A program made the translations under genes and the position numbers. Source: a virus. Taken from it: a stretch of DNA of 64,000 nucleotides. The stretch spans positions 96,001 to 160,000 of IMG/VR virus record IMGVR_UViG_3300034107_000725; one strand, written 5' to 3'. Below are positions 8,552 through 63,130 of the stretch, piece after piece. Below the pieces are notes generated by a model, which was not told the DNA's origin, did not search any database, and saw only the letters and a list, made by a program, of their open reading frames with translations. Position 1 is the first letter of the stretch, and each line of letters opens with the position of its first letter.

Positions 8552-8590
8552 AGGTCGGTTGGTTACAATGTGGCCAACCGACCTTGTCTA
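8552..8590 (+). terminator. Strong hairpin, probable terminator ending the head operon
   Basis: AGGTCGGTTGG (8552-8562) is the perfect reverse complement of CCAACCGACCT (8574-8584); followed by tgtctatt (weak U tract). Confidence 0.6.
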
Positions 8591-8608
8591 TTGATAGAAA
8601 GTGCCAAT

Positions 8609-9853
8609 ATGCTGCTGAGCCTGTTCACTCCAACGCATAAGCCAACCTACTTACCAGAAGCCTACCATTCGCTAAAGCAGCAGAATCTTAAGGACTGGGA
8701 ATGGGTCATCCTTCCCAACGGCAACAACGTCGTAATCCCTGAAGAGATCCAGCGGGATAAGCGAGTTCGAATTGTCACAGGTGGGGAGCACCTACATAAC
8801 GTAGGGGCTTTAAAGCGAAAAGCCTGTGACGCTGCCAGCGGCGATGCGTTCATCGAATTTGATCATGACGACATGCTGGTACCGGGTGACTCGCTCGACA
8901 TCATCCGAGACAAGTTTATAAAAGGTGCCGGGTTTGTTTATTCCGACACCGCTGTCTTTAGATTCAAGCAGGAAATGGGATCAGACGGACAGCTAAAGGA
9001 CGTACACAGTCCTTACACGTATTCTCAGCAGCACGGCTGGGAAAGCTATCCAATCACAGCCAACGGGCTGGATTTGTTGGCGACCAAGTGTTTTGAAGTG
9101 TCGCCAAGGTCCCTGGCCGAAATTTACTACTGCCCGGACCACGTGAGAAGCTGGTCACGTAAGGCTTACTATGAAGCTGGCGGCCACAATCCAGAACTTT
9201 CGGTTTGTGACGATCATGAGCTCATGATCAAAACGTATTTGACCGGTGCTCCGTTTGTGCACACAGGTGGCTGTCAGTATCTGTACCGCATGTTTGATCA
9301 CAACACGGTCATTATGCGGAACAAGCAGATTCAGGATATCACCCGCACACTGAGGGAAACACATGTACAAGGGTTGATCAAATCCTGGCTTAAACGTAAG
9401 GACTTTGCCGAATTGGATCTGACTACGCTGAGACAGTCCGGCTGGGAGCCCGATCGACATTTGCTTCAAGGTTTTGGAAAAGACCAATATGGTCATATAA
9501 TAGCAGATACCGAACTGCAAAAGTTCACAGGTATTCAGGTCCGGGAATTCATGAATGAAGCCTACGAAGCTCTGGTTCCAGGCGGTTATCTTTCCATCAC
9601 AGTCCCTGAAGTCCATTCTGGTATGGGCTATGGTGATGTAGAGTGGCAGAGCCATTTTAGTGCGGTCAGCATGAATCCATACACTCGTGTGACATCTGCC
9701 CGCAATAATGGTAAAGTAAACTGTCGGTTCCAGCAGATTAACTGCTTGGAGGTATATCCTTCAGAATGGCACCGCGACAATGGGTTTAAGTTCCTGCGAT
9801 TTGAGCTGGCTGCTCTCAAGGGACAAAGACACCCAGGACTTCAACATATTTGA
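8609..9853 (+). CDS. GT2-family glycosyltransferase fused to a degenerate class I methyltransferase-like domain
   Basis: SLFTPTH...WEWVIL..N, EFDHDDML (DxD), CDDHELM are GT-A/GT2 motifs; C-terminal FMNEAYEALVPGGYLSITVP resembles SAM-MTase strands. ATG 8609 preferred because the GTG at 8570 lies inside the hairpin. Confidence 0.8.
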   Translation: MLLSLFTPTHKPTYLPEAYHSLKQQNLKDWEWVILPNGNNVVIPEEIQRDKRVRIVTGGEHLHNVGALKRKACDAASGDAFIEFDHDDMLVPGDSLDIIRDKFIKGAGFVYSDTAVFRFKQEMGSDGQLKDVHSPYTYSQQHGWESYPITANGLDLLATKCFEVSPRSLAEIYYCPDHVRSWSRKAYYEAGGHNPELSVCDDHELMIKTYLTGAPFVHTGGCQYLYRMFDHNTVIMRNKQIQDITRTLRETHVQGLIKSWLKRKDFAELDLTTLRQSGWEPDRHLLQGFGKDQYGHIIADTELQKFTGIQVREFMNEAYEALVPGGYLSITVPEVHSGMGYGDVEWQSHFSAVSMNPYTRVTSARNNGKVNCRFQQINCLEVYPSEWHRDNGFKFLRFELAALKGQRHPGLQHI

Positions 9854-9905: not shown

Positions 9906-18997
<9,092 letters not shown>

Positions 18998-18998
<1 letters not shown>

Positions 18999-21112: not shown

Positions 21113-22756
21113 ATGTCATTCCGGTTCCACCTGCTTGGGCTGCCGCACACGGTTTCCAGCCCGGAGTATGTCGCTTGTGCTTACACTCAAAAGGTCGTTA
21201 AGTTTGCCAAGATGATGAAGGCCCGTGGCCACCATATCATCCACTACGGACACGAAGACTCTCAGGTAGACTGCCACGAGCACGTCACGGTCACGACCAA
21301 TCGGGATCTGGAAATTGCGTACGGCAACTACGACTGGCGAGCTGGCTTCTTCAAGTTTGATGTCAACGACCACGCCTACCAGACGTTCTACAGAAACGCC
21401 ATCGTTGAGGTCGGCAAGCGAAAGCAGAATCGCGACTTCATCCTGCCGTTCTGGGGTTCCGGTGTTCGACCTGTCTGTGATGCCCACCCAGACATGATCT
21501 GTGTTGAACCGGGCATCGGTTATGCCGGTGGACACTGGGCTCGTTGGAAAGTGTTCGAGAGCTATGCCATCTACCACGCTTACTGTGGAATGCACAACGT
21601 CAGCACCTGTCGTCAGGATTGGTACGACGTGGTTATCCCCAACTACTTCGATGTCGATGACTTTGAGTATTCAGACGAGAAGGACGATTACTTCTTGTAT
21701 CTGGGTCGGGTCTACGACGGCAAAGGCGTGAACATTGCGATCCAGGTCACCGAGAAGATCGGAGCCAAGTTGATCGTGGCAGGCCAGAAGGAAGAAGGCT
21801 ACGCTCTACCACCACACGTTGAGTACGTCGGCTATGCTGACCTACCAACACGTAAGCGACTCATGAGTCGGGCCAAGGGTAGCTTTGTGCCGAGCATGTA
21901 TGTCGAACCATTCGGCGGCGTTCAGGTTGAGAACCTACTCTCCGGTACGCCTACGATCACGACTGACTGGGGAGCTTTTGTGGAAAACAATCCACACGGA
22001 GTTACAGGTTATCGTTGTCGTTCGTTCGAAGACTTCGTCAACGCTGCCCTGAACGTCGACAAGATTAACCCGGCAGACTGTCGTAAGTTCGGCGAACAGT
22101 TCTCACTGGAAAACGTCGCACTCAGGTATGAGAAGTATTTCCAGGACGTCATGAACGTCTACACGGGTCAAGGCTGGTATCAGATTGGCATACCGTGCGA
22201 CTATCCTACGATGGAAACAGAGGAAGGCCCGTTCGCCAAGCGGCTGGCCGAGTATATCTCCAGCCTTTATTTCTACGGCAGGCAATTTCAAGGCACGGTC
22301 GCGGACATTGGCTGCGGTCCGGGCATCTACACACAGGCGATGCGGGAACTGGGGATTGAAGCCACCGGCTATGACACGGATGCTCGGATCAAGGGTAAAC
22401 CAAATCTAGAGCAGATCTCTCTCTTCGATTTAGATACTCCTGCTGACATAGTGCTTTGTCTGGAAGTGGCAGAACATATTCCAGAGGCTGAGGCGGACGG
22501 TGTGGTTGCCAGTATGGTTCGCAACCTGAAATCGGATTCAACAGCTGGGCTCATCATCTGGACAGCTGCTCAACCAGGACAAGGCGGACACGGGCATATC
22601 AACTGCCAACCGCCGGAATACTGGGACGCCAAGTTTGAAGCTCAGGGCATGACGAGGGAAACCTCATTTGAAGACGATCTGCGAACATTTGCTCGCGACG
22701 GATATCACATGGGTTGGTTCGTCAATAACCTGAGGGTTTATCGTCGTGCCGAATAA
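21113..22756 (+). CDS. GT4-family glycosyltransferase fused to a class I SAM-dependent methyltransferase
   Basis: [10 protein letters not shown] and [16 protein letters not shown] (GT-B/GT4); VADIGCGPG (SAM motif I), [21 protein letters not shown]. Confidence 0.9.
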
Positions 22757-24368
22757 GCTCCAGACTCACACCGTTGAACAACCGGATAGCGATATCACCG
22801 CGTTCATTCTGAGCTGCAACCGACTCGACCTGCTATCACGCACGGTCGAGTCGTTCTTACAGACTCGGGACATGCCAACCAAGATCGTAATCCTGGACGA
22901 CAGCGGTGTGGATGGTGTGTTTGAACTGCTGGTTCAGCGTTACGGACAGATCGCAGATATCGTTTGCTTCCCAGAGAACCGTGGTCTCTGGTGGGCCAAG
23001 GATTTCATGATCTCGTACTGCTTCACCAAGTACATCTTTTACATAGAAGATGACTGGCTGTTCTTGCAGCCCGGTTACCTGATTAGATCTAAAGCGATCC
23101 TTGAAAAGGATCGTACAATCGGTTCGATTGATCTTTCGTGGCGGACGTTTGAAGAAGAGGGCATGGACGCTTACGACCCTGAACTGGTCGACGATGCCTA
23201 CTTCCACAAAAAGCCTTGGCAGATTACCGAAGGACACTTGCACTGGTTCTGCTGGCAGGGCAGTCCGAATCTAAAACGTCGGGAAGACCTGATCCTGCTG
23301 GGCCGGGTTGAGAGCTATTACACCGAGTGGAATATCGATCGCAAGTTCTATGCCCTGGGTCTAAGAGGTGTTTATCTCAAGGACCGGTATGTAACACACC
23401 TGGGCGACTTCGCCAGCTTGATGGTGAACAAACGCCCGAACGAGCAGAACACTCCAGAAATCTTATATCCAGAAGAGCTGAAGGCTAACAGGTTATTCCC
23501 GGCTTTCGACTACTACGGATTAGATCAGGTGGCTTTAGACATTCGCGGAGATGTTCCAAGGCATCGACAAAATAAGCAGGTGCTGGTGACTTGTGTGCTC
23601 GACATCGGGCGAGAAGCCTACGATCGCCGAAGTTTCCTGGATCACTACATCGAAGGTTTGGAACAGCTGATTGAGCTAAACCGACCGCTGGTTATCTTTG
23701 TAGACGATCGGTACTACATAGATGTCTTAAAGCTCACGGGCGGTCGTCCGATAAAGGTCATCTCGGTTGCTCCGGAACTGATCAAGTGGCGACCCATCTA
23801 TCCACGACTAAAGGAAATCTGCGAGTCCAAGCAGTGGGCATCACAATCAGACTGGATGCAGGGAAGCATCATCCAATCCCCTGATTACATAGGATTGACG
23901 CTGCACAAGATGGAACTGTTGATGCACTGCGTCAATCACAGCGTATTCCGTTCTGACTCTTATTACTGGGTTGATGCCGGTATGTGTCGCAGCTACCACG
24001 TGAGCAATCTTCGTGGCTGTGATTTTGACAAGCTGCCAGCGACGCGATTCTTTATGACTACGTTTCCGTATCCCATGCCAGAGTCTGTTCCAGAGATGCA
24101 CGGCTATTCTCGTAACGGATTTCTGGAACTTTGCGGGCGTATTCCAAACACAGTTTGCAGGGCTACCATTTTCGGTGGCACCAAGCAGGCTATCTCTGAC
24201 GTGTATGTGCAGTACAATGAGTTCTTGAAGCAATCACTTGCAGCAGGGTATATCGGAACAGAAGAGGCAATTTTCTCTGGGTTGGCTATCACCCGCCAGG
24301 AACTGTTCAATCTGGTCCCTATGCATACCGGCGACATTCGGAACTATCTCAACACGTTACGCCACTGA
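22746..24368 (+). CDS. GT2-like glycosyltransferase fused to an HtrL/YibB-like domain
   Basis: N-terminal [25 protein letters not shown] (GT-A); C-terminal VTCVLDIGR...YYWVDAG..R pattern recalled from the HtrL/YibB (WlaTC) family. Confidence 0.7.
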
Positions 24369-43807: not shown

Positions 43808-44275
43808 ATGGCACAGAAGGGGCTAGTCGATCCTCACTTGGAAATTATGCTTCAGCATTTTACCAAGTCTAAGAAGGAATCGTATTCCAAGCGGACAACC
43901 AACGATGCAGTGCCCTGGTTTCGCCCACCCCTTGAAGGTTGGGACGGTGATCTGCAAACCGAAGAAGGTTTGATCACGATCCATGATGCCTTCAACACGG
44001 ACAAAGCCGAAGCAGCTTTGATTGAAGCCTATCAGCCAGGCTCTCCGGGCAACACTTCAGATGGTGTCGTACTCAGCTTGCAGATCGATTACGCGGCTCA
44101 GGCTGAGCGAGCTTTTCGAGCCCGTACAACTCAAACCTTTCCAAGGGCGTTGGCTCACTTGTCTACAAGAGAAAAAGGCCACGGCCAAGACACAGGTGCG
44201 TTTACCGGGCAGGCGTTGAACTACTTCACCGCAATCATTAAACAAGGATCTGAAGGCAAGGGGGGAGCGATATGA
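43808..44275 (+). CDS. Hypothetical protein
   Basis: 155 aa; coupled to its neighbours (GGAG RBS, ATGA overlap). Confidence 0.55.
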   Translation: MAQKGLVDPHLEIMLQHFTKSKKESYSKRTTNDAVPWFRPPLEGWDGDLQTEEGLITIHDAFNTDKAEAALIEAYQPGSPGNTSDGVVLSLQIDYAAQAERAFRARTTQTFPRALAHLSTREKGHGQDTGAFTGQALNYFTAIIKQGSEGKGGAI

Positions 44276-44760
44276 CCCAGCTATCAGGCACACTACATCA
44301 GTACATTGGACGTACAGTGGACGTGCTGGCGTTTGACGACGCTAAAGCTACTGGGGATGCCTTGCTGACTCAAACTCTGGTTCAACCAGGGCAAAGTGGA
44401 GCACTCATTACCGGTATCGAAAAGCTGGTGCAGCGTTTCCTGCTTGAGCTACTGACCGAGCAAGGTTCCATGCCGTATGCTTTGGCTCGTGGTACGTTTT
44501 TCATGACGCAGATCCGTGCCGGAATGCTGAGTACATCTCAAGATCTGTTTGCAGCTTTTGGAGCCGCAGAGCTGGAAATCCGAACCAATCTGCGAACAGA
44601 AGAAGATGTTGCAACAAACCCCGCAGATGAGCGATACAAGTCAGCCTCTCTGCTTGCTGCGTCATTACAGGGAGATCTGGCGGTGCTTACCATTCAGGTT
44701 ATGAGCGTCGCTGACGTTTCGCGAACCGTGATCTACCCACTGAGAGTTTCTATATCTTGA
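44272..44760 (+). CDS. Baseplate wedge gp25-like (sheath initiator) protein
   Basis: ITGIEKLVQRFLLELLTEQGS.P....RGT motif; directly before the baseplate J gene. Confidence 0.75.
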   Translation: MTQLSGTLHQYIGRTVDVLAFDDAKATGDALLTQTLVQPGQSGALITGIEKLVQRFLLELLTEQGSMPYALARGTFFMTQIRAGMLSTSQDLFAAFGAAELEIRTNLRTEEDVATNPADERYKSASLLAASLQGDLAVLTIQVMSVADVSRTVIYPLRVSIS

Positions 44761-44767
44761 GGATGCC

Positions 44768-46438
44768 ATGAGCCTGACCGTATCAAACTTTGAATTGTCC
44801 AACCTGACAGACCTCGACAACGCCGATGTCCAACAGGTGTTGGAACAGTTGACGACTCAGCTGCAGGAACTCAACCCTTCGTTAGATCTTAAACGAGGGG
44901 TTTTTAAAGATATCGTGGCGTACTATCACGCCGTGCTTGAGACGGCAATTCGTACAAATTTGGAACGCTACCAGTCTGCTCGCAGTCTACAGCAGATTAA
45001 CGCCAACGCCGTTGCCGCAGATTCCACAGTCGTAGATGAGGTTCTTTCTAATTGGGGCATAACCCGTAAGACAGGAACCAGAGCAATAGGTTCGGTCACT
45101 ATCGAGATCAGTCAGGCTCGCTCAGTAACCATACCGGCTAACTTCACTTTCTCTGTAAACGGATTAACCTACGTCGCGACTCAGACCTTCACCTCGAGAA
45201 CAAGTGAAGGACAGATTTCTAATCCTGTCACTGACCGCTTACTGGTACAACTGAGTAACGGAAACTGGGCCTTCACTATTGAGGTGGAAGCTGAAGACGT
45301 AGGTTCAAAATATAAGCTAAACGCCGGGGATACGTTAAACCCGGATCGAACCGTCGTATCCTTTGTCGCCAGTTACGCGACCTCTACATTTAATGACGGT
45401 TTAGACGCAGAGACCAACGAACAATTAATCGCTGAACTACAGTTGGGCCTGGCGGCCAAGGCGTTGTCTAACCGCACTAACATGCGATCTTATCTGCGAT
45501 CCATACCTGCTTTGAATCTTATAACAAATCAATCCATTGTCGGTTACGGTGACGCCGAGATGTTGCGGGATCAACATACCATTTTTCCGGTCAGCTACGG
45601 TGGCAGAGTGGATTGGTACATTCGCGGCCAAGAAACCCTACAGCGGTTGGCTGTCACGGTAACCGCAACTTGTATCAGCATCGCGGGCAGTACCAGCACA
45701 TGGCAATTTGCACTAAACAAGAACGCATCGCCCGGATTTTACGAAGTCACTAAGATTCGACGACAACTTGACGCAAATTTAAATTCCGGATTTGAAATCA
45801 TTCTAGACAGTCGATCCAACGACCTGACAGGTGACGGGTTTATTCCGGACATTACTACAATAGCAGAAGGGGCGTACACCGCGTTTCAAACTGCGATCAT
45901 ACAGTTCGTAGATACTGTGACGCTTGTATCCGGGCTGGCTGTAGGGCAGACTGCTCTATACACTTGCGAGCTGATCGGCACTCCACTGATTCAAGAAATC
46001 CAAACACTGGTATCGAGCCGCGATGTCCGCAGTTATGCCGCAGATGCTTTGGTTAAAGCTCCGGTACCTTGTTTTGTACAGGTGACTCTTACCCTAAACA
46101 AGACAACAGGAACTATGGTCGACGCGGATATGATTGACAAGATCAAGCTCGCCATCATCGGTGTAGTCAATCGCACAGACTTCGTAGGCAGGTTGGACGG
46201 TTCCTATATCATTGAAGCCGTGCACGGTCTGATTACAGATAACATAAGCATAACTCAATTGGATCTTCTGGGACGTATACGTAGACCAGACGGTACATTA
46301 CAATATTTACGAGACCCGGATTCAATTGTGATCCCGGAGCAACCGGTTAAGATGGTGACAGCAAAAACGGTTCAATTTTTTGCAGAGGTTGCAGATGTGT
46401 CCGTTAACGTAGCATCTACGATTCCTACGGCAAACTAA
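44768..46438 (+). CDS. Baseplate J-like wedge protein (T4 gp6/P2 gpJ family)
   Basis: DLKRGVFKD, NWGITRKTGTRAIGSVTI...VTIPANFTF, EVEAEDVGSKY, GLDAETNE motifs. Confidence 0.85.
   Translation: MSLTVSNFELSNLTDLDNADVQQVLEQLTTQLQELNPSLDLKRGVFKDIVAYYHAVLETAIRTNLERYQSARSLQQINANAVAADSTVVDEVLSNWGITRKTGTRAIGSVTIEISQARSVTIPANFTFSVNGLTYVATQTFTSRTSEGQISNPVTDRLLVQLSNGNWAFTIEVEAEDVGSKYKLNAGDTLNPDRTVVSFVASYATSTFNDGLDAETNEQLIAELQLGLAAKALSNRTNMRSYLRSIPALNLITNQSIVGYGDAEMLRDQHTIFPVSYGGRVDWYIRGQETLQRLAVTVTATCISIAGSTSTWQFALNKNASPGFYEVTKIRRQLDANLNSGFEIILDSRSNDLTGDGFIPDITTIAEGAYTAFQTAIIQFVDTVTLVSGLAVGQTALYTCELIGTPLIQEIQTLVSSRDVRSYAADALVKAPVPCFVQVTLTLNKTTGTMVDADMIDKIKLAIIGVVNRTDFVGRLDGSYIIEAVHGLITDNISITQLDLLGRIRRPDGTLQYLRDPDSIVIPEQPVKMVTAKTVQFFAEVADVSVNVASTIPTAN
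45782..45793. promoter_or_regulatory. AAWTCCGGAWTT palindrome, copy inside a CDS
   Basis: AATTCCGGATTT within the baseplate J gene, preceded by TTTA. Confidence 0.4.
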
Positions 46439-46453
46439 CAGGAGGTTACTTGC

Positions 46454-47368
46454 GTGGCAAAACGAGCAAGCGGACGAGCAGAAGCTATTCGATTGTTGAA
46501 GCAAGACGGTGGTGAAGATCAACGCACCCCGCAACAGATGACGTTTGCCGTGAACTACTTGACGTTCTTTGGCTACATTGCAGTACACTTGCTGCAAAAC
46601 CTGGAACTCAAAGATATCAAGGCAGCGATCAAGGCTTTTCAAAAAATCTTTGGCCTAAAAGAGGACGGCACACTCACGCCGCAAACTTTACGTGCCATGG
46701 AAGGACCTCGATGTGGTTGTCCTGACCACATTGACGCGGACAATAAAAACCACCTTCAATTCATGCGGGCTCAAGAGATCTCAATCGAGAAACGAGATCG
46801 CTGGAACAAGCAAGGATTGAAGTACTTTATCGAGAAGTATCCGACGACCAAGATTCACAAAGACGAGCAGTCGCTTATCTTTGCGTCTGCCTTCCGGGCG
46901 TGGGATGACGTGTGTGGTCTAAATATTTTAGAGTGCAAGAAGGCTGCCGATGCGGATATCATTGTATCTGTAGGCAGTGGGCCTCAGCACAACTTTGACG
47001 GTGTCGGTGGTACGCTAGCCTGGGCCTATCTACCCACGGGAACAGATCAGCAGCTTACGATGCGATTTGACCTCGAAGAAACTTGGGTAGCTAAACCAAA
47101 AGATCGTGGTGTCTTGCTGCACAACGTGGCCTGCCACGAGTTTGGACATCTTTTGGGACTAACCCATTCAAAGCGACCTAGTGCTTTGATGGCTCCATAC
47201 TACAACCCATTTGTCGCTGTCCCGCAAGAGGACGATGACATCACACGAATTGAAAAACTTTACGGCAAAAACAACCAAATTGCCGCAATTCATGAAGTCA
47301 GTAAAGTTGGCTCTAACCTGACAGTGGAACTGCAGCCGGGCCAAAAACTTACGGTTGTTTGCAAATAA
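46454..47368 (+). CDS. Matrixin (M10A, MMP-like) zinc metalloprotease with PG-binding-like prodomain and cysteine switch
   Basis: AIKAFQKIFGLKEDGTLTPQT..AM..PRCGCPD prodomain; HEFGHLLGLTH zinc motif; ALMAPYY Met-turn; FDGVGGTLA loop; GGAGG RBS with GTG start. Confidence 0.92.
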   Translation: MAKRASGRAEAIRLLKQDGGEDQRTPQQMTFAVNYLTFFGYIAVHLLQNLELKDIKAAIKAFQKIFGLKEDGTLTPQTLRAMEGPRCGCPDHIDADNKNHLQFMRAQEISIEKRDRWNKQGLKYFIEKYPTTKIHKDEQSLIFASAFRAWDDVCGLNILECKKAADADIIVSVGSGPQHNFDGVGGTLAWAYLPTGTDQQLTMRFDLEETWVAKPKDRGVLLHNVACHEFGHLLGLTHSKRPSALMAPYYNPFVAVPQEDDDITRIEKLYGKNNQIAAIHEVSKVGSNLTVELQPGQKLTVVCK

Positions 47369-47379
47369 GGAGATCGATC

Positions 47380-47781
47380 ATGCCGATGACACAGCTCACT
47401 TTGGATCTGGGTACTTTCGTGACTGCGATCAAGTACCTACTCGCTGCCTGTCTAGTAGCAGTCTGCGTGTTCACGTTTGTCATTCCCTGGATACGTGACT
47501 TGCTAACCAAGGAAGCCGAAGTTGTTGCAAACCCACGAGCGTCAGGGTTGCCTCGCTTTCGGCGTCGTGACGAAAATCACTGTAGCGACACCCCACCTCC
47601 ATCCGGATTCGCTGACCACTTGAAGGTCATTGAAGCCACGGCTCCCAACGCAGATCCAAAAATCTGGTGGGAATACGCCAAGGCTGAAATGACCGAGGCC
47701 GAAGTTGCAATCGCTGAAGCCAAGTTGGCTCGGGTTTGCAGCGATGTGACCGCAACTGTGGTGCCAGGGGGGACGATATGA
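47380..47781 (+). CDS. Single-TM membrane protein
   Basis: AAGGAG RBS before ATG 47380; TM segment AIKYLLAACLVAVCVFTFVIPWI. Confidence 0.65.
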   Translation: MPMTQLTLDLGTFVTAIKYLLAACLVAVCVFTFVIPWIRDLLTKEAEVVANPRASGLPRFRRRDENHCSDTPPPSGFADHLKVIEATAPNADPKIWWEYAKAEMTEAEVAIAEAKLARVCSDVTATVVPGGTI

Positions 47782-48143
47782 AACCCAAATACACGGGGTT
47801 GTTCTGTGGTGTTGCGGGGGTCCTGCTTCTGCTTTGGCCTTCGCAACAGAGTTCACGGCCTACCCCGCCGCCCCCTCCACCGGTAGTTTTGGATTTGCCG
47901 GGTAAGGCTTTTGCCACATATGAAAAGCTGTGGCGAAAGCATACCCAAGATGCCGCTGATAAAATTGTCAGCGGTACGTTAAAAGACGAAAAATCTGTGT
48001 GGGACTTCTTGGCCGCTGGCCAAGAACCTGCACGTAAGGTTGCGTTTGACGAGCTGGCCAAATCTGAGCAGGACTATTTCATCAAGCAAGGTGGCTGGTC
48101 CGCTGCTGCTCATGAGAAGCTATTAAGGAGCTATGCGAAATGA
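47778..48143 (+). CDS. Signal-anchored protein with poly-Pro linker
   Basis: MKPKYTGLFCGVAGVLLLLWP..PTPPPPPPVV; ATGA overlaps on both sides. Confidence 0.65.
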   Translation: MKPKYTGLFCGVAGVLLLLWPSQQSSRPTPPPPPPVVLDLPGKAFATYEKLWRKHTQDAADKIVSGTLKDEKSVWDFLAAGQEPARKVAFDELAKSEQDYFIKQGGWSAAAHEKLLRSYAK

Positions 48144-48961
48144 GCGAATCGCAAACACCTTACGACTACAACTGGGAACTAGAAGATCATGGTTACCTTC
48201 AGGCCTTGCCTGAGGCTCCCATGACTACTGATGCCTGGCAAGTCTTTTCGCGTCCGTCAGAGGTTGATGCCAGTTGGCACAACAACGAAAACCAAGGTCA
48301 AATTGGAAGCTGTCAAGGTAACGGGCTGAGCTCGGTCCTGGAACGTCTTGCCTTTGTACAGGGCAAGACTGTTCAACTATCTCGGATCTTCGCTTACTTG
48401 GCAACTCAGAAAATTGACGGGCTGTTGGGAGCGGACAACGGATCTACTATCGCAGGTGGTTGCAAACTTGCAGTAGAGTCTGGTTGTCCGCTTGAGGCTG
48501 CCACAGGGTATCCTTCACGGTATCCGAATGCGACAGAGCGAATTCAAATTCTCAGCCAGGCCAATTACAGTGCCGGGGCTCCTTACAAAGCTAAATCTGC
48601 CTGGCAAGTACCTAAAGATCATAATCAACTTCTAGATTTTATCGGAGGCGGTGGCGGCATCACTTTCGGGGTCCGCTGGTACAATGGGCTTATCCCACAG
48701 GACCGGATTGTTCGCTCTTTCCGGCCTGCCCGTTGCAGTGGCGGGCATGCCATGTGCGTGCTTGGCTACGACACAGATGGAAACTTACGAGCTTACAATT
48801 CCTGGGGTGACGGTTTGTACACAATCACCCCGGAAGCCTGGGTTCAAATGCTGTCAGATAGTTCTACCGCGGCGATCGGGTTAATGGGCAACGTAAACGC
48901 CGAGCCGATTGACTGGTATCGTAACTCTCCCTACTTCAAGCTAAGGATGAAACCAGAGTGA
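48140..48961 (+). CDS. Papain-like (C1 family) cysteine peptidase
   Basis: NQGQIGSCQG (oxyanion Gln and catalytic Cys), GGHAMCVLGYD (His), YNSWG (Asn). Confidence 0.9.
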   Translation: MSESQTPYDYNWELEDHGYLQALPEAPMTTDAWQVFSRPSEVDASWHNNENQGQIGSCQGNGLSSVLERLAFVQGKTVQLSRIFAYLATQKIDGLLGADNGSTIAGGCKLAVESGCPLEAATGYPSRYPNATERIQILSQANYSAGAPYKAKSAWQVPKDHNQLLDFIGGGGGITFGVRWYNGLIPQDRIVRSFRPARCSGGHAMCVLGYDTDGNLRAYNSWGDGLYTITPEAWVQMLSDSSTAAIGLMGNVNAEPIDWYRNSPYFKLRMKPE

Positions 48962-49674
48962 ATCGTACTACGTTTAGTGTAAAACACCTGCAGTTCGTAG
49001 CTGCGGGTGTTGCCTGTGTAGGTTTACTGGGATTGGGCTTCATGCTATCCCTTGTCTCTGCCGAGGCAGTTGCAGCTCCTCCACAGATAGTCATGGCGAC
49101 CGCGGATGATACTCTTGTCAGTAAGTTTGATGAGGAAGTCAAATCTGCGTTGGTAGACAACCATCAGAAGCAGATGGCTGCGTTGTCTGACCAAAAAACC
49201 ATGCTGCAGAAACTAGATCAATCCGTTCAGCAGTTGTTGGTAAAATCAAAAGAACAGCCAACGCCGCCTCCGGCTCCTCAAGCAGAGACCAAACCCAAAG
49301 TTCAGCCGACTCCAAAGCCTGAACCTGCAAAGGCAATAGCTCCAGCACCTGTAGCTACCACAACTTTGCCAAACCCTGTTCGTCGTTCCAGCATCATTTG
49401 GAATTTGAACAATCGTTGGGACTATTCCACGGAAGAGCTGACGGCCCACTTACTGGCCGAACACAATTTTGAGGCAGCTTCCTACGATCGAGAACAACTT
49501 CAAACGGTACACGACAACCTGCATAACGGGTACACCGCTCTAGGTGACACGGTCGTGCAAGCTCCTGTAGCTCAATCACCTGCGGTACACTATCACTATA
49601 CAGCACCTCAGCGACGTGGCTGGGGACTGCGAAGTGTTGCTTCTTGCCCTGGAGGGACTTGTCCAACGCCATGA
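48958..49674 (+). CDS. Membrane-anchored/exported protein with coiled coil, Pro-rich linker, His-rich domain and CPGGTCP tail
   Basis: Hydrophobic FVAAGVACVGLLGLGFMLSLV; QMAALSDQKTMLQKLDQSVQQLL coil; HLLAEH..HDNLHN; ends CPGGTCPTP. Confidence 0.65.
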   Translation: MNRTTFSVKHLQFVAAGVACVGLLGLGFMLSLVSAEAVAAPPQIVMATADDTLVSKFDEEVKSALVDNHQKQMAALSDQKTMLQKLDQSVQQLLVKSKEQPTPPPAPQAETKPKVQPTPKPEPAKAIAPAPVATTTLPNPVRRSSIIWNLNNRWDYSTEELTAHLLAEHNFEAASYDREQLQTVHDNLHNGYTALGDTVVQAPVAQSPAVHYHYTAPQRRGWGLRSVASCPGGTCPTP

Positions 49675-49985
49675 GTAACGAACCTAAGCCAGAAGCCATA
49701 AGCTACGACTATCCTGTTGTGATTCCAGCTTCAGTCTATGGACTGCTGGAAAGCCTGCTTAACACAGGTAAGATCTCGCAATCCGGTGTAGAGTTGGATT
49801 TTTCACCGGTGCAGGAGATTAAGATCTCCAACGGCACAGCTCGACTGAACCCGCCTGCCCGCGTATCTCTAGGGTATGGTGGTGTGGCAATTCGCACAAC
49901 TGTGTCTGCCTTAGTCGCTCAAGCAGGTGGGGTGAAGATAGAGATCGACAACTCGCCCATTAATGTTGAGGTACGTCCTGGATGA
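49671..49985 (+). CDS. Hypothetical beta-rich protein
   Basis: ATG 49671 overlaps the previous stop (ATGA); 104 aa. Confidence 0.55.
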   Translation: MSNEPKPEAISYDYPVVIPASVYGLLESLLNTGKISQSGVELDFSPVQEIKISNGTARLNPPARVSLGYGGVAIRTTVSALVAQAGGVKIEIDNSPINVEVRPG

Positions 49986-50341
49986 ACTGGGACGCCTTAA
50001 CCTTAGAATGTTGCCGAGAGCATGGATGCTCTGACCAGCATATCGATATGGCAATGGCTGGTCCGTATTCTCGAACAATCGTTCAAGATATGCGGCGAAA
50101 ACAAATTGACGTACGCACTGCTTCAGATGCCGTACGCCGAGCCTATCTGGCTAATCCACAGGCTAGCCGAGAAGAGATGCGACGGCAGTCGTATAAATTC
50201 ATTCTTGGTGGCATCCTTCTTACGATACTACTGCAAGCTCTATTATCCGCCGTAGCCAAGATGGCTATCGAGTGGTTTTTAGATCACGTCTTCAACAAGC
50301 AGGAAACCCGCAATGGCGGTATATCGCTACCCCCAGAATAA
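49982..50341 (+). CDS. Membrane protein with a C-terminal hydrophobic helix
   Basis: FILGGILLTILLQALLSAVAKMAIEWFLDHVF; ATGA overlap. Confidence 0.6.
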   Translation: MNWDALTLECCREHGCSDQHIDMAMAGPYSRTIVQDMRRKQIDVRTASDAVRRAYLANPQASREEMRRQSYKFILGGILLTILLQALLSAVAKMAIEWFLDHVFNKQETRNGGISLPPE

Positions 50342-51887
50342 TTTCGACACACCGGAACTATTGCTGGACCTATTGGGCAGTTTCTGGGCTAACACCTACC
50401 AAGGCACTGCTTTGGTAGGTGATTTAACAAGTACTGCCGGGCAAATCGCCCAGCAGACTTATCTGCACCTGCTGGAATTGATAAACAGCGTATCTCGGTT
50501 TGATGTGCCCGTCTACCATCAGGACAATTGGTACGGATTAACCATACGTGAGTCTGAGTTAAACACGGACCCGTCTCTGCTGCCGCAACATACAACACCG
50601 TCCAGCTATCAGTTCCTTAGTGACGCAACTCTGAGTTATAGCACAGATCCTCAAACAGTAAGACAAAGCCTACAACTATTTGTTGTCACCAAACCGACTG
50701 GCCTTGAGAACGTCAAACTGATTTTTAACCGGCTGACGTCACCGACAGTTGAGCTCCAGAATGGTTTGGACTACTGGATCACAGACTCTGTGATTGTCTT
50801 CCGAGACAATCCATTCAATAATCCGCTGATTGCCCGTCGAGATCTGCTCAATAACTCCGGGCAGATTGTTGACCGCGAGCTCGTCCTTTGGTTGTACCGT
50901 GGTTTATGGGACTGGAATACAGTTTATGAGCAGTTTGGTTACGCCTTACAGCTTCAGTTGAAGTCGAGTGAAGGTTATAAGTCATTTTTAAACGCCATTT
51001 TTGATGCACTTGTAGAAGGTACCAGCCTCCGCACCCAGCAGTTTGCGTTGGCTGCCGTCTACGGTGTGCCGCTAATTATCGAAGCGACTGAAACGGTCGA
51101 GACGATTGCAAAAGATGCGGATAAGCTGAACATCATTACAGATAGTCACGCTTACCAGTTCCCAGTGACTGCGATACCTCTCGTACAGGTCGGGGACGTT
51201 GTACGTGCTGGTGACTCGATAACGAACCTGTTGCAAGTATTTGAGCTCAACCGAGGAGCTGAGATCTCTCCAGCAGACATACAGGCATTAACTATCGGTA
51301 CAGGTGTGCTGGCCTGGGGCTTCTGGGGCGATTTGACGTTTGAAAATAAACAAGTACCCGTCATAGTCGAATCAGATACGGCTGGTCGCACCAAAGTCTC
51401 ATGGGCACTTGGTGGATTTCCGTTTGACGTGGAAAACTTCTGGGACGAAGTACACGCAGCAGGAGTTCAGAAAGGGCAGACGCTTGCCAACTTACTGGAC
51501 ACACGGGAAAATCCTGTAGGGCAGCCCACCGCAGGTATGTTGCCAACCACCATAAATCCATTCCAGTTCCTGACAAATAACCTTTTACGGAATAACGCCT
51601 ACCTGGTTAAAGTGCGGCCAGGCAGTGAACTTACCGATCGACTGGACTTCATGCCGGTAGAGCAGTTGCGTAAGATTCAACCGCCGCATACTCTAATGTT
51701 GCTGATTGTTGAATTGGTTCACAGGGATAGTCCTGTTATCATGGAAAATCCAGGAACCGAGACCGATCCGGGCTACGTAGAAACCTTGAGCGGATTTCCT
51801 TGCATGGTCAACTCAGATGATATGGACCCTGCAGTGTACGTGGCCGAGCGGGTTAGAACCAGCGTCATTGGCGGTCGGTGCGTCTAA
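50313..51887 (+). CDS. Baseplate wedge protein (gp7/P2 gpI-like, probable)
   Basis: LLLDLLGSFWANTY start; helical NAIFDALVEGTS..Q.ALAAVYGVP segment; position among baseplate genes. Confidence 0.5.
   Translation: MAVYRYPQNNFDTPELLLDLLGSFWANTYQGTALVGDLTSTAGQIAQQTYLHLLELINSVSRFDVPVYHQDNWYGLTIRESELNTDPSLLPQHTTPSSYQFLSDATLSYSTDPQTVRQSLQLFVVTKPTGLENVKLIFNRLTSPTVELQNGLDYWITDSVIVFRDNPFNNPLIARRDLLNNSGQIVDRELVLWLYRGLWDWNTVYEQFGYALQLQLKSSEGYKSFLNAIFDALVEGTSLRTQQFALAAVYGVPLIIEATETVETIAKDADKLNIITDSHAYQFPVTAIPLVQVGDVVRAGDSITNLLQVFELNRGAEISPADIQALTIGTGVLAWGFWGDLTFENKQVPVIVESDTAGRTKVSWALGGFPFDVENFWDEVHAAGVQKGQTLANLLDTRENPVGQPTAGMLPTTINPFQFLTNNLLRNNAYLVKVRPGSELTDRLDFMPVEQLRKIQPPHTLMLLIVELVHRDSPVIMENPGTETDPGYVETLSGFPCMVNSDDMDPAVYVAERVRTSVIGGRCV

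Positions 51888-60586: not shown

Positions 60587-63130
<2,544 letters not shown>

Follow-up and report, generated by a model that had tools for sequence, protein, structure and literature searches.

We describe seven genes, here g1 to g7, that interrupt the baseplate block of a viral genome. They lie in a window of 64,000 nucleotides, bases 96001-160000 of the single 193,990-bp IMG/VR virus record IMGVR_UViG_3300034107_000725 (hereafter G000). The original prediction took them for one seven-gene lysis cassette based on proteases. This does not hold, as an M10 protease gene with baseplate J but without g2-g7 is found in some relatives (L105, L116, L124), and g2-g7 occurs without M10 in other backbones and in prophages. 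From these comparisons the apparent cassette is best described as two units: a baseplate-linked matrixin (unit A, g1) and a mobile C1 peptidase module (unit B, g2-g7) in the variable slot behind it. Our leading reading, held at about even odds, is that g2-g7 is a protease-based lysis module, and the argument for lysis is drawn only from gene context and from the absence of alternatives. No protease-based lysis module of this kind is described in the literature searched.

The peptidase of the module, g4, is assigned from its sequence and its model to the xylellain-type C1A enzymes of the papain family. Q52, C58, H203 and N220, the last followed by S221, are invariant in 19 sequences and show the order and spacing of papain. 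The family profile matches xylellain (PDB 3OIS) at E=5e-21. For the AlphaFold2 (AF2) model, with a predicted local distance difference test (pLDDT) score of 87, the top Foldseek match is again 3OIS (E=2.5e-13), followed by cathepsins and papain, and the top 50 matches are all C1A enzymes, not CHAP or NlpC/P60 peptidases. No Pfam match at E<=0.01 is obtained with g4 itself, but within its family PF00112 is annotated in the relatives P0018 and P0019 and matches a homologue in G008/G011 at E=5e-10. Together with the M10 assignment of g1 (Table 1), this confirms the predicted presence of two proteases of different class.

None of 53 g4 homologues has an N-terminal hydrophobic segment, i.e., a signal sequence is missing throughout. 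The only longer form is the copy P0241 (636 aa, 62% identical to g4), where an intein with a LAGLIDADG homing endonuclease (PF14890, PF14528, PF05203) interrupts the C1 peptidase. Phage genes that harbour inteins are usually important and strongly conserved. When viral contigs were scanned with single proteins, neither g4 nor g1 found a relative, and family alignments were needed. A tblastn search of g4 against cultured phages gave two weak matches only, to Burkholderia phage FLC9 and to one uncultured phage. Xylellain-type C1A genes are reported to have been acquired by Myoviridae and Siphoviridae, with no role assigned to them (PMC10380794).

All seven open reading frames (ORFs) were found on the plus strand at the coordinates of Table 1, where the starts of g2, g3 and g6 have been refined by alignment with relatives. 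Five 4-nt overlaps join g2 to g7: ATGA at g2/g3, g3/g4, g5/g6 and g6/g7, and GTGA at g4/g5. Both g1 and g2 have their own Shine-Dalgarno sequence and follow gaps of 15 nt and 11 nt, respectively. Six genes are therefore strictly coupled and g1 is merely adjacent, so that the predicted coupling of seven genes stands for g2-g7 but not for g1.

The distribution across relatives follows the same division. The seven-gene order, together with baseplate J and the downstream genes d1-d3, is kept at 50-68% identity in L010-L012, L026-L031, L035, L107 and L109-L115. Co-conservation of the whole set, which had been suggested as a check, is thus seen in the close jumbo clade, but elsewhere M10 and g2-g7 separate. 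In the distant jumbo phages L105, L116/L106 and L124, M10 lies directly behind baseplate J and g2-g7 is missing, while the slot before d1 is filled by other exported proteins. Behind M10 in jumbo relatives without C1 there is a 114-aa secreted protein in L105, a secreted protein of ~590 aa with a Trypsin_2 domain in L146 (9842-11614) and another of ~590 aa with a CxxCH motif in L116. The slot of L116 (9918-13205) encodes two exported proteins besides, and Planctomycete cytochrome c (PSCyt1) is weakly matched by one of them.

C1 with g3-like and g5-like neighbours is found without M10 or baseplate genes in the unrelated backbones L032-L034, L040, L047/57/67 and L081/97, and the C1 module also in the prophage-like loci L013 and L018 of Planctomycetaceae metagenome-assembled genomes (MAGs). 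A stand-alone copy lies at 9174-12584 of L009, a bacterial-looking contig of 290 kb, beside a stretch resembling a tRNA and a gene for reverse transcriptase. Its order is two small transmembrane (TM) proteins, a g3 homologue, C1 (54% identical), a 305-aa lipoprotein and two TM proteins, and the lipoprotein has a weak thioredoxin match and a C-terminus that resembles g5. The module was seen in ~300 viral contigs, always co-oriented with the late genes. In L108, C1 has been replaced by a protein with papain-like Q-C, H-A-M and N-S-W motifs (assigned by eye), homologous to a protein beside M10 in L145, and L154 retains a divergent C1. A structural module of the baseplate stays with baseplate genes, and g1 does so within the jumbo clade only. 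The possibility raised with the original prediction, that these proteins are baseplate components, thus does not fit g2-g7, which occur without baseplate genes (L032-L034, L018, L009), but retains its force for g1, which is linked to J in the jumbo clade.

The remaining genes of unit B encode four putative membrane-associated proteins and one that is probably cytoplasmic. A single N-terminal TM segment (about residues 19-40) is found in g2, with a basic stretch behind it and a conserved C-terminal helical domain. The N-terminal anchor of g3 leads through a Pro-rich linker to a helical domain that is conserved (A-F-x-x-Y-E-x-L-W); of its homologues, those in L013, L018, L057 and L067 are lipoproteins and the others have a TM anchor. 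From an anchor or export N-terminus, g5 continues through a helical stretch and a Pro-rich linker to a His-rich domain and ends in C-P-G-G-T-C-P; the alignment shows that C-P-x-G-x-C-P, including the Cys pair, is conserved at this end. The protein at the g5 position is a lipoprotein in most relatives, with the lipobox L-x-G-C in L011, L030, L031 and L035 and M-I-G-C in L032. No clear lipobox is present in g3 and g5 of G000 itself. The statement that no lipobox-bearing o-spanin is recognisable is thus correct for G000, but homologues in relatives do carry lipoboxes. Finally, g7 has a predicted N-terminal cytoplasmic domain and a C-terminal TM, and C-terminal-TM proteins of similar size follow the module in L033 and L034. 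The predicted membrane anchors are thus real, N-terminal in g2, g3 and g5 and C-terminal in g7.

The AF2 model of g6 (pLDDT 74) has one helix and eight strands, and the gene is conserved in the jumbo clade. A staphostatin-type cytoplasmic inhibitor was considered for g6 and rejected, as this model of moderate confidence has no PDB fold match at E<=0.001. Look-alike searches of a protein atlas with g5 and g2 gave nothing usable.

The record is 94% complete by the CheckV estimate, and ~90% of its ORFs share one strand. Its genes include those for a multisubunit RNA polymerase, a tubulin, a family A DNA polymerase, a collagen-repeat protein of 3,030 aa and many glycosyltransferases. On this gene content we take G000 to be a jumbo tailed phage. 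We regard it as a jumbo myovirus that probably infects Planctomycetota. In a search of the C1 family against 185,579 species genomes, the seven best matches are all Planctomycetota MAGs (Gemmataceae, Planctomycetaceae, Bythopirellula). One bacterial C1 match lies inside a 4-Mb contig and adjoins a terminase, and is therefore in a prophage. The family is present in nine of 301 sampled Planctomycetota genomes, a sporadic presence as expected for a mobile gene. These bacterial matches predict that the host is probably a planctomycete, in line with the original prediction, which had thought the set suited to a host with a protein-cross-linked envelope.

What suggests lysis is, to begin with, the company that C1 keeps. 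In non-redundant loci with C1 at an identity of at least 45%, an N-terminal anchor or hydrophobic segment is present in 11 of the 12 genes upstream and in all 14 downstream, and the second-upstream gene is TM or membrane-anchored in 11 of 12 loci; the background is 16.5%. The location of the module points the same way. In L033 two HNH genes and then Terminase_4 come next, and in L018 a ParB-methylase gene and then the large terminase gpA. This place just upstream of terminase is that of the lysis genes in lambda-like phages. In lambda, S-R-Rz/Rz1 come before terminase, and in P2, Y-K-lysABC lie between head and tail genes. The module is also found between head and tail genes in the L047-type phages (L047/57/67), and after the tape measure in L081/L097.

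The other part of the argument is what these genomes lack. The window holds no lysozyme, amidase or transglycosylase, as stated from the start, and neither these nor any other peptidoglycan hydrolase is among all Pfam families matched by the ORFs of the 194-kb G000. The search for a canonical endolysin was extended to 19 related genomes, ten of which are at least 90% complete. Here Phage_lysozyme (PF00959), Amidase_2 (PF01510), SLT (PF01464), M15_4 (PF13539), NlpC/P60 (PF00877) and Amidase_3 (PF01520) gave 0 matches over the cut-off. Two small C1-bearing genomes, both complete, were scanned with all of Pfam; the 25/28 families listed include Peptidase_C1 but no wall hydrolase. Searches with GH19 and GH108 gave no match, but their built-in controls were silent too, so these two are uninformative.

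Peptidase_M23, the seventh informative family, gave sub-threshold matches in 7 of the 19 genomes, and these were rejected as lysins, since those checked are RNA polymerase beta-prime. The matches of G000, G015 and G020 were checked individually (G001-G003, G014 and G018 were left out); that of G000 falls in the beta-prime C-terminal ORF (RNA_pol_Rpb1_5, 5.5e-20) and the other two in homologues of this ORF. In the ORF, at 88153-91335 of G000 (L005:12246-15428), residues 366-419 form an insertion directly behind the first Rpb1_5 stretch. The insertion that gives the M23 signal is probably a sandwich-barrel hybrid motif.

We suggest the following order of events if g2-g7 is a lysis module. The single-pass membrane proteins g2 and/or g7, with their cytoplasmic domains, would act as holin- or antiholin-like gates. 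The signal-less g4 would build up in the cytoplasm and reach the envelope only once the membrane is breached, where it could cut the protein, or perhaps peptide-stem, components by which the planctomycete envelope is held together. Tethered on the periplasmic face, g3 and g5 would be spanin-like or serve as targeting or activating partners, and the Cys pair conserved in g5 may maintain the catalytic thiol in its reduced state.

Several observations weigh against a lytic function. C1 homologues below 30% identity have a different context, beside very large fibre-like ORFs and without membrane neighbours, and in several backbones the module lies within the morphogenesis operon, which would fit a virion-related role as well. 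Neither Pfam nor PHROGs places g2, g3, g5, g6 or g7 in a holin or spanin family, and no g4 homologue is fused to a wall-binding domain. We know of no C1A peptidase that cuts peptidoglycan. Planctomycetes do possess peptidoglycan (PMC4432640), and a protease alone may be insufficient for lysis. The sister jumbo phages without C1 (G014, 93% complete, and G018, 98%) are likewise without a recognisable endolysin, and the argument from absence is therefore weaker than at first sight. An either/or distribution had to be rejected, as the M10 phages that lack C1 carry no canonical endolysin in its place. The absence of endolysins may instead reflect divergent lysins in this phage group that escape detection. 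The original claim that proteases replace the holin-endolysin-spanin set thus agrees with the lack of a canonical enzyme among the families examined, but its argument from absence is weakened by these sisters.

Unit A has a clear identity. Over profile positions 1-159 of 159, g1 matches Peptidase_M10 with 115.4 bits (cut-off 24). It has a PG_binding_1-like prodomain with a PRCGCPD Cys switch, followed by the M10 catalytic domain. R86, C87, G88, P90 and D91 of the R-C-G-x-P-D switch are invariant across 18 homologues, as are the HExxHxxGxxH zinc site and the Met-turn (H228, E229, H232, G235, H238 and M246; 18 sequences). Judged by these residues, g1 is a latent, catalytically competent pro-matrixin. 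The secretion signal of classical matrix metalloproteinases is missing, and the N-terminus is hydrophilic.

The role of g1 could be either that of a second lysin or that of a baseplate-linked entry enzyme. It lies directly after baseplate J in every jumbo relative with a recognisable J, including those without g2-g7, and this fixed position fits an entry enzyme. The missing signal, together with short twin-arginine M10 proteins beside membrane proteins elsewhere, fits a lysin instead. These distant M10 proteins of viral contigs (195-233 aa) have RRxFL signals and are flanked by single-TM proteins of 60-90 aa. Such loci are L131, L135-L139, L141-L143, L159 and L161, several of which keep a PRCG Cys-switch-like motif. 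By their gene arrangement they look like a second kind of metalloprotease lysis cassette.

One or both proteases could also belong to an entry apparatus, i.e., be associated with the virion or the baseplate and digest the protein-rich surface or wall of the host, the small membrane proteins then being factors for assembly or superinfection exclusion. The constant place of g1 behind J, which recalls T4 gp5 beside gp6, would be explained in this way, and so would the modules after the tape measure or between head and tail genes and the distant C1 homologues beside fibre-like ORFs. However, the constant partners of C1 are membrane proteins and lipoproteins, which are not virion parts, and the module can lie directly before terminase and away from tail genes (L033, L018) or alone on a bacterial contig (L009). 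Nor is a place inside a late morphogenetic operon foreign to lysis cassettes, as it is normal in P2. We consider this explanation unlikely.

Another possibility is that the module is a moron that remodels the envelope without lysis, for example by trimming host surface proteins (receptor removal, superinfection exclusion, holdfast or matrix release), or that it is a defence or toxin system. Its modular mobility, the sporadic presence of C1 in hosts and the other exported proteins found in the slot behind M10 (Trypsin_2 in L146, PSCyt-like in L116, 114 aa in L105) agree with this. It is nevertheless quite unlikely, as the module of ~300 viral contigs is tightly coupled and co-oriented with late genes, the complete lack of export signals among the C1 homologues fits holin-dependent release better than constitutive secretion, and no alternative lysis system was found in G000 or among the families listed for the two small C1-bearing genomes. 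We also considered that M10 and/or C1 mature virion proteins of the phage, such as its collagen-repeat fibres. M10 is classically a collagenase-type enzyme, G000 encodes collagen-repeat proteins of 3,030 aa and 842 aa, and collagen repeats occur in 11 of 18 M10-bearing genomes compared with none of six small phages without M10. This correlation is confounded by phylogeny, and the nearly complete M10-bearing G014, G019 and G025 have no collagen repeats, so the link between collagen and M10 is weak. Such processing also leaves unexplained the membrane and lipoprotein partners of C1 and the C1 modules of phages without collagen genes, which makes it very improbable.

Table 1. Features of the g1-g7 region and its flanking genes (window coordinates; roles of g1-g7 are predicted).
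Feature	Coordinates	Strand	Basis
gp25/W-like baseplate protein (context)	44272..44760	+	phrog_975 'baseplate protein', E=1.3e-3
Baseplate J-like wedge protein (context)	44768..46438	+	PF04865 E=7.5e-12
g1, latent pro-matrixin	46454..47368	+	PF00413 E=2.9e-33, PF01471 E=1.2e-7
g2, single-pass membrane protein, holin-like candidate	47380..47781	+	sequence and alignment
g3, N-terminally anchored periplasmic protein (predicted)	47778..48143	+	alignments
g4, xylellain-type C1A cysteine peptidase, proposed lysin	48140..48961	+	invariant tetrad, profile and fold matches
g5, exported or anchored protein	48958..49674	+	alignment
g6, small cytoplasmic beta-rich protein	49671..49985	+	AF2 model
g7, tail-anchored membrane protein, second holin/antiholin-like candidate	49982..50341	+	sequence and alignment
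d1, conserved structural-block protein closing the variable slot (context)	50313..51887	+	synteny in relatives

The genes on both sides of the region are conserved. Baseplate J is syntenic and 60-68% identical in L010-L012, L026-L031 and L107-L115. In relatives, d1 is syntenic and 50-62% identical, and it also follows the M10 slot in L105, L116 and L154. The genes d1-d3 are syntenic in relatives, yet without a family match.

Other features of G000 were noted. The 3,030-aa ORF consists mostly of collagen triple-helix repeats (~30 Pfam Collagen matches) and the 842-aa ORF lies near the tail-fibre region (window 9906-18998 and 60602-63130); most jumbo relatives have comparable collagen-repeat genes. 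At 8570-9853 and 21113-24368 of the window, genes for glycosyltransferases (GT2, GT1 fused to a methyltransferase, HtrL/YibB-like) lie among those of the virion, which suggests glycosylated structural proteins. The L003/L004 region encodes a PhuZ-like tubulin, a putative DUF6782 metallopeptidase, a ferritin/Dps protein, a SET-domain protein and several sigma-70 region 3/4 proteins. A terminal repeat was rejected, as bases 1-100 of G000 recur at 193470-193569, 521 bases before the end, and the sequences then diverge.

Almost nothing has been published on phages of Planctomycetota, bacteria with an unusual, protein-rich envelope; in a review of the phylum from 2025, phage genes come up just once. 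If the C1 module is the lysin, it would add a new type of enzyme to those used for phage lysis, and would provide a probe of the load-bearing layer of the planctomycete envelope and a source of protein-targeting lysins. It can be speculated, though we find it doubtful, that Planctomycetota phages in general lyse mainly by proteolysis, with a holin-released C1A peptidase, membrane-tethered partners and sometimes a matrixin or trypsin-like enzyme in place of a muralytic endolysin. If so, a protein layer or protein tethers, and not peptidoglycan, would hold this envelope together.

Among known systems, g1 is closest to the pro-matrix metalloproteinases (MEROPS M10A), with which it shares the PG_binding_1-fold prodomain, the PRCGxPD switch, HExxHxxGxxH and the Met-turn. 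It differs in having neither a signal peptide nor a hemopexin domain, in apparently having the ligands of the second (structural) zinc replaced (judged by eye), and in being phage-encoded and adjoining baseplate J. No paper connecting matrixins with phages was found in the literature search. The origin of matrix metalloproteases is debated, and a phage pro-matrixin with an intact Cys switch and a prodomain of PG-binding fold is relevant to it. As an entry enzyme, g1 would also resemble the T4 gp5 tail lysozyme, both then being latent, wall-directed hydrolases encoded beside a baseplate wedge gene; gp5 is encoded next to gp6, a Baseplate_J homologue. However, the T4 lysozyme is fused to the spike, while g1 is a free metalloprotease without a spike or OB-fold domain.

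For g4, the nearest relative in sequence and structure is xylellain of Xylella fastidiosa (PDB 3OIS), a short bacterial C1A type. Both have an N-terminal extension before the catalytic core, but the identity is only ~25%, and for xylellain neither a lysis role nor a module of membrane partners is described.

Unit B as a whole resembles the holin-endolysin-spanin cassettes in its small membrane proteins, signal-less hydrolase, putative pair of inner-membrane-anchored protein and lipoprotein, and tight coupling in a late operon. In relatives it also shares the positions of the lambda and P2 cassettes, directly before terminase or between head and tail genes. A canonical cassette includes a peptidoglycan-degrading endolysin, of which no known family is found in g2-g7 or in the genome. 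The hydrolase is a C1A protease, and not a muramidase, amidase, transglycosylase or LAS/CHAP peptidase. Compared with canonical spanins, g3 and g5 have no family match, are far larger than o-spanins and each alternate between TM anchor and lipobox. A partial precedent may be PeiW and PeiP of methanogen phages, pseudomurein endoisopeptidases described as cysteine peptidases (MEROPS C71). These belong to a different family than g4 and have wall-binding repeats and a known substrate, features that g4 does not share (PMC4592898, PMC2989375). The likeness to the function proposed for g4 is that PeiW and PeiP are phage-encoded peptidases and lyse a host of unusual wall structure through cleavage of a peptide link and not of the glycan.

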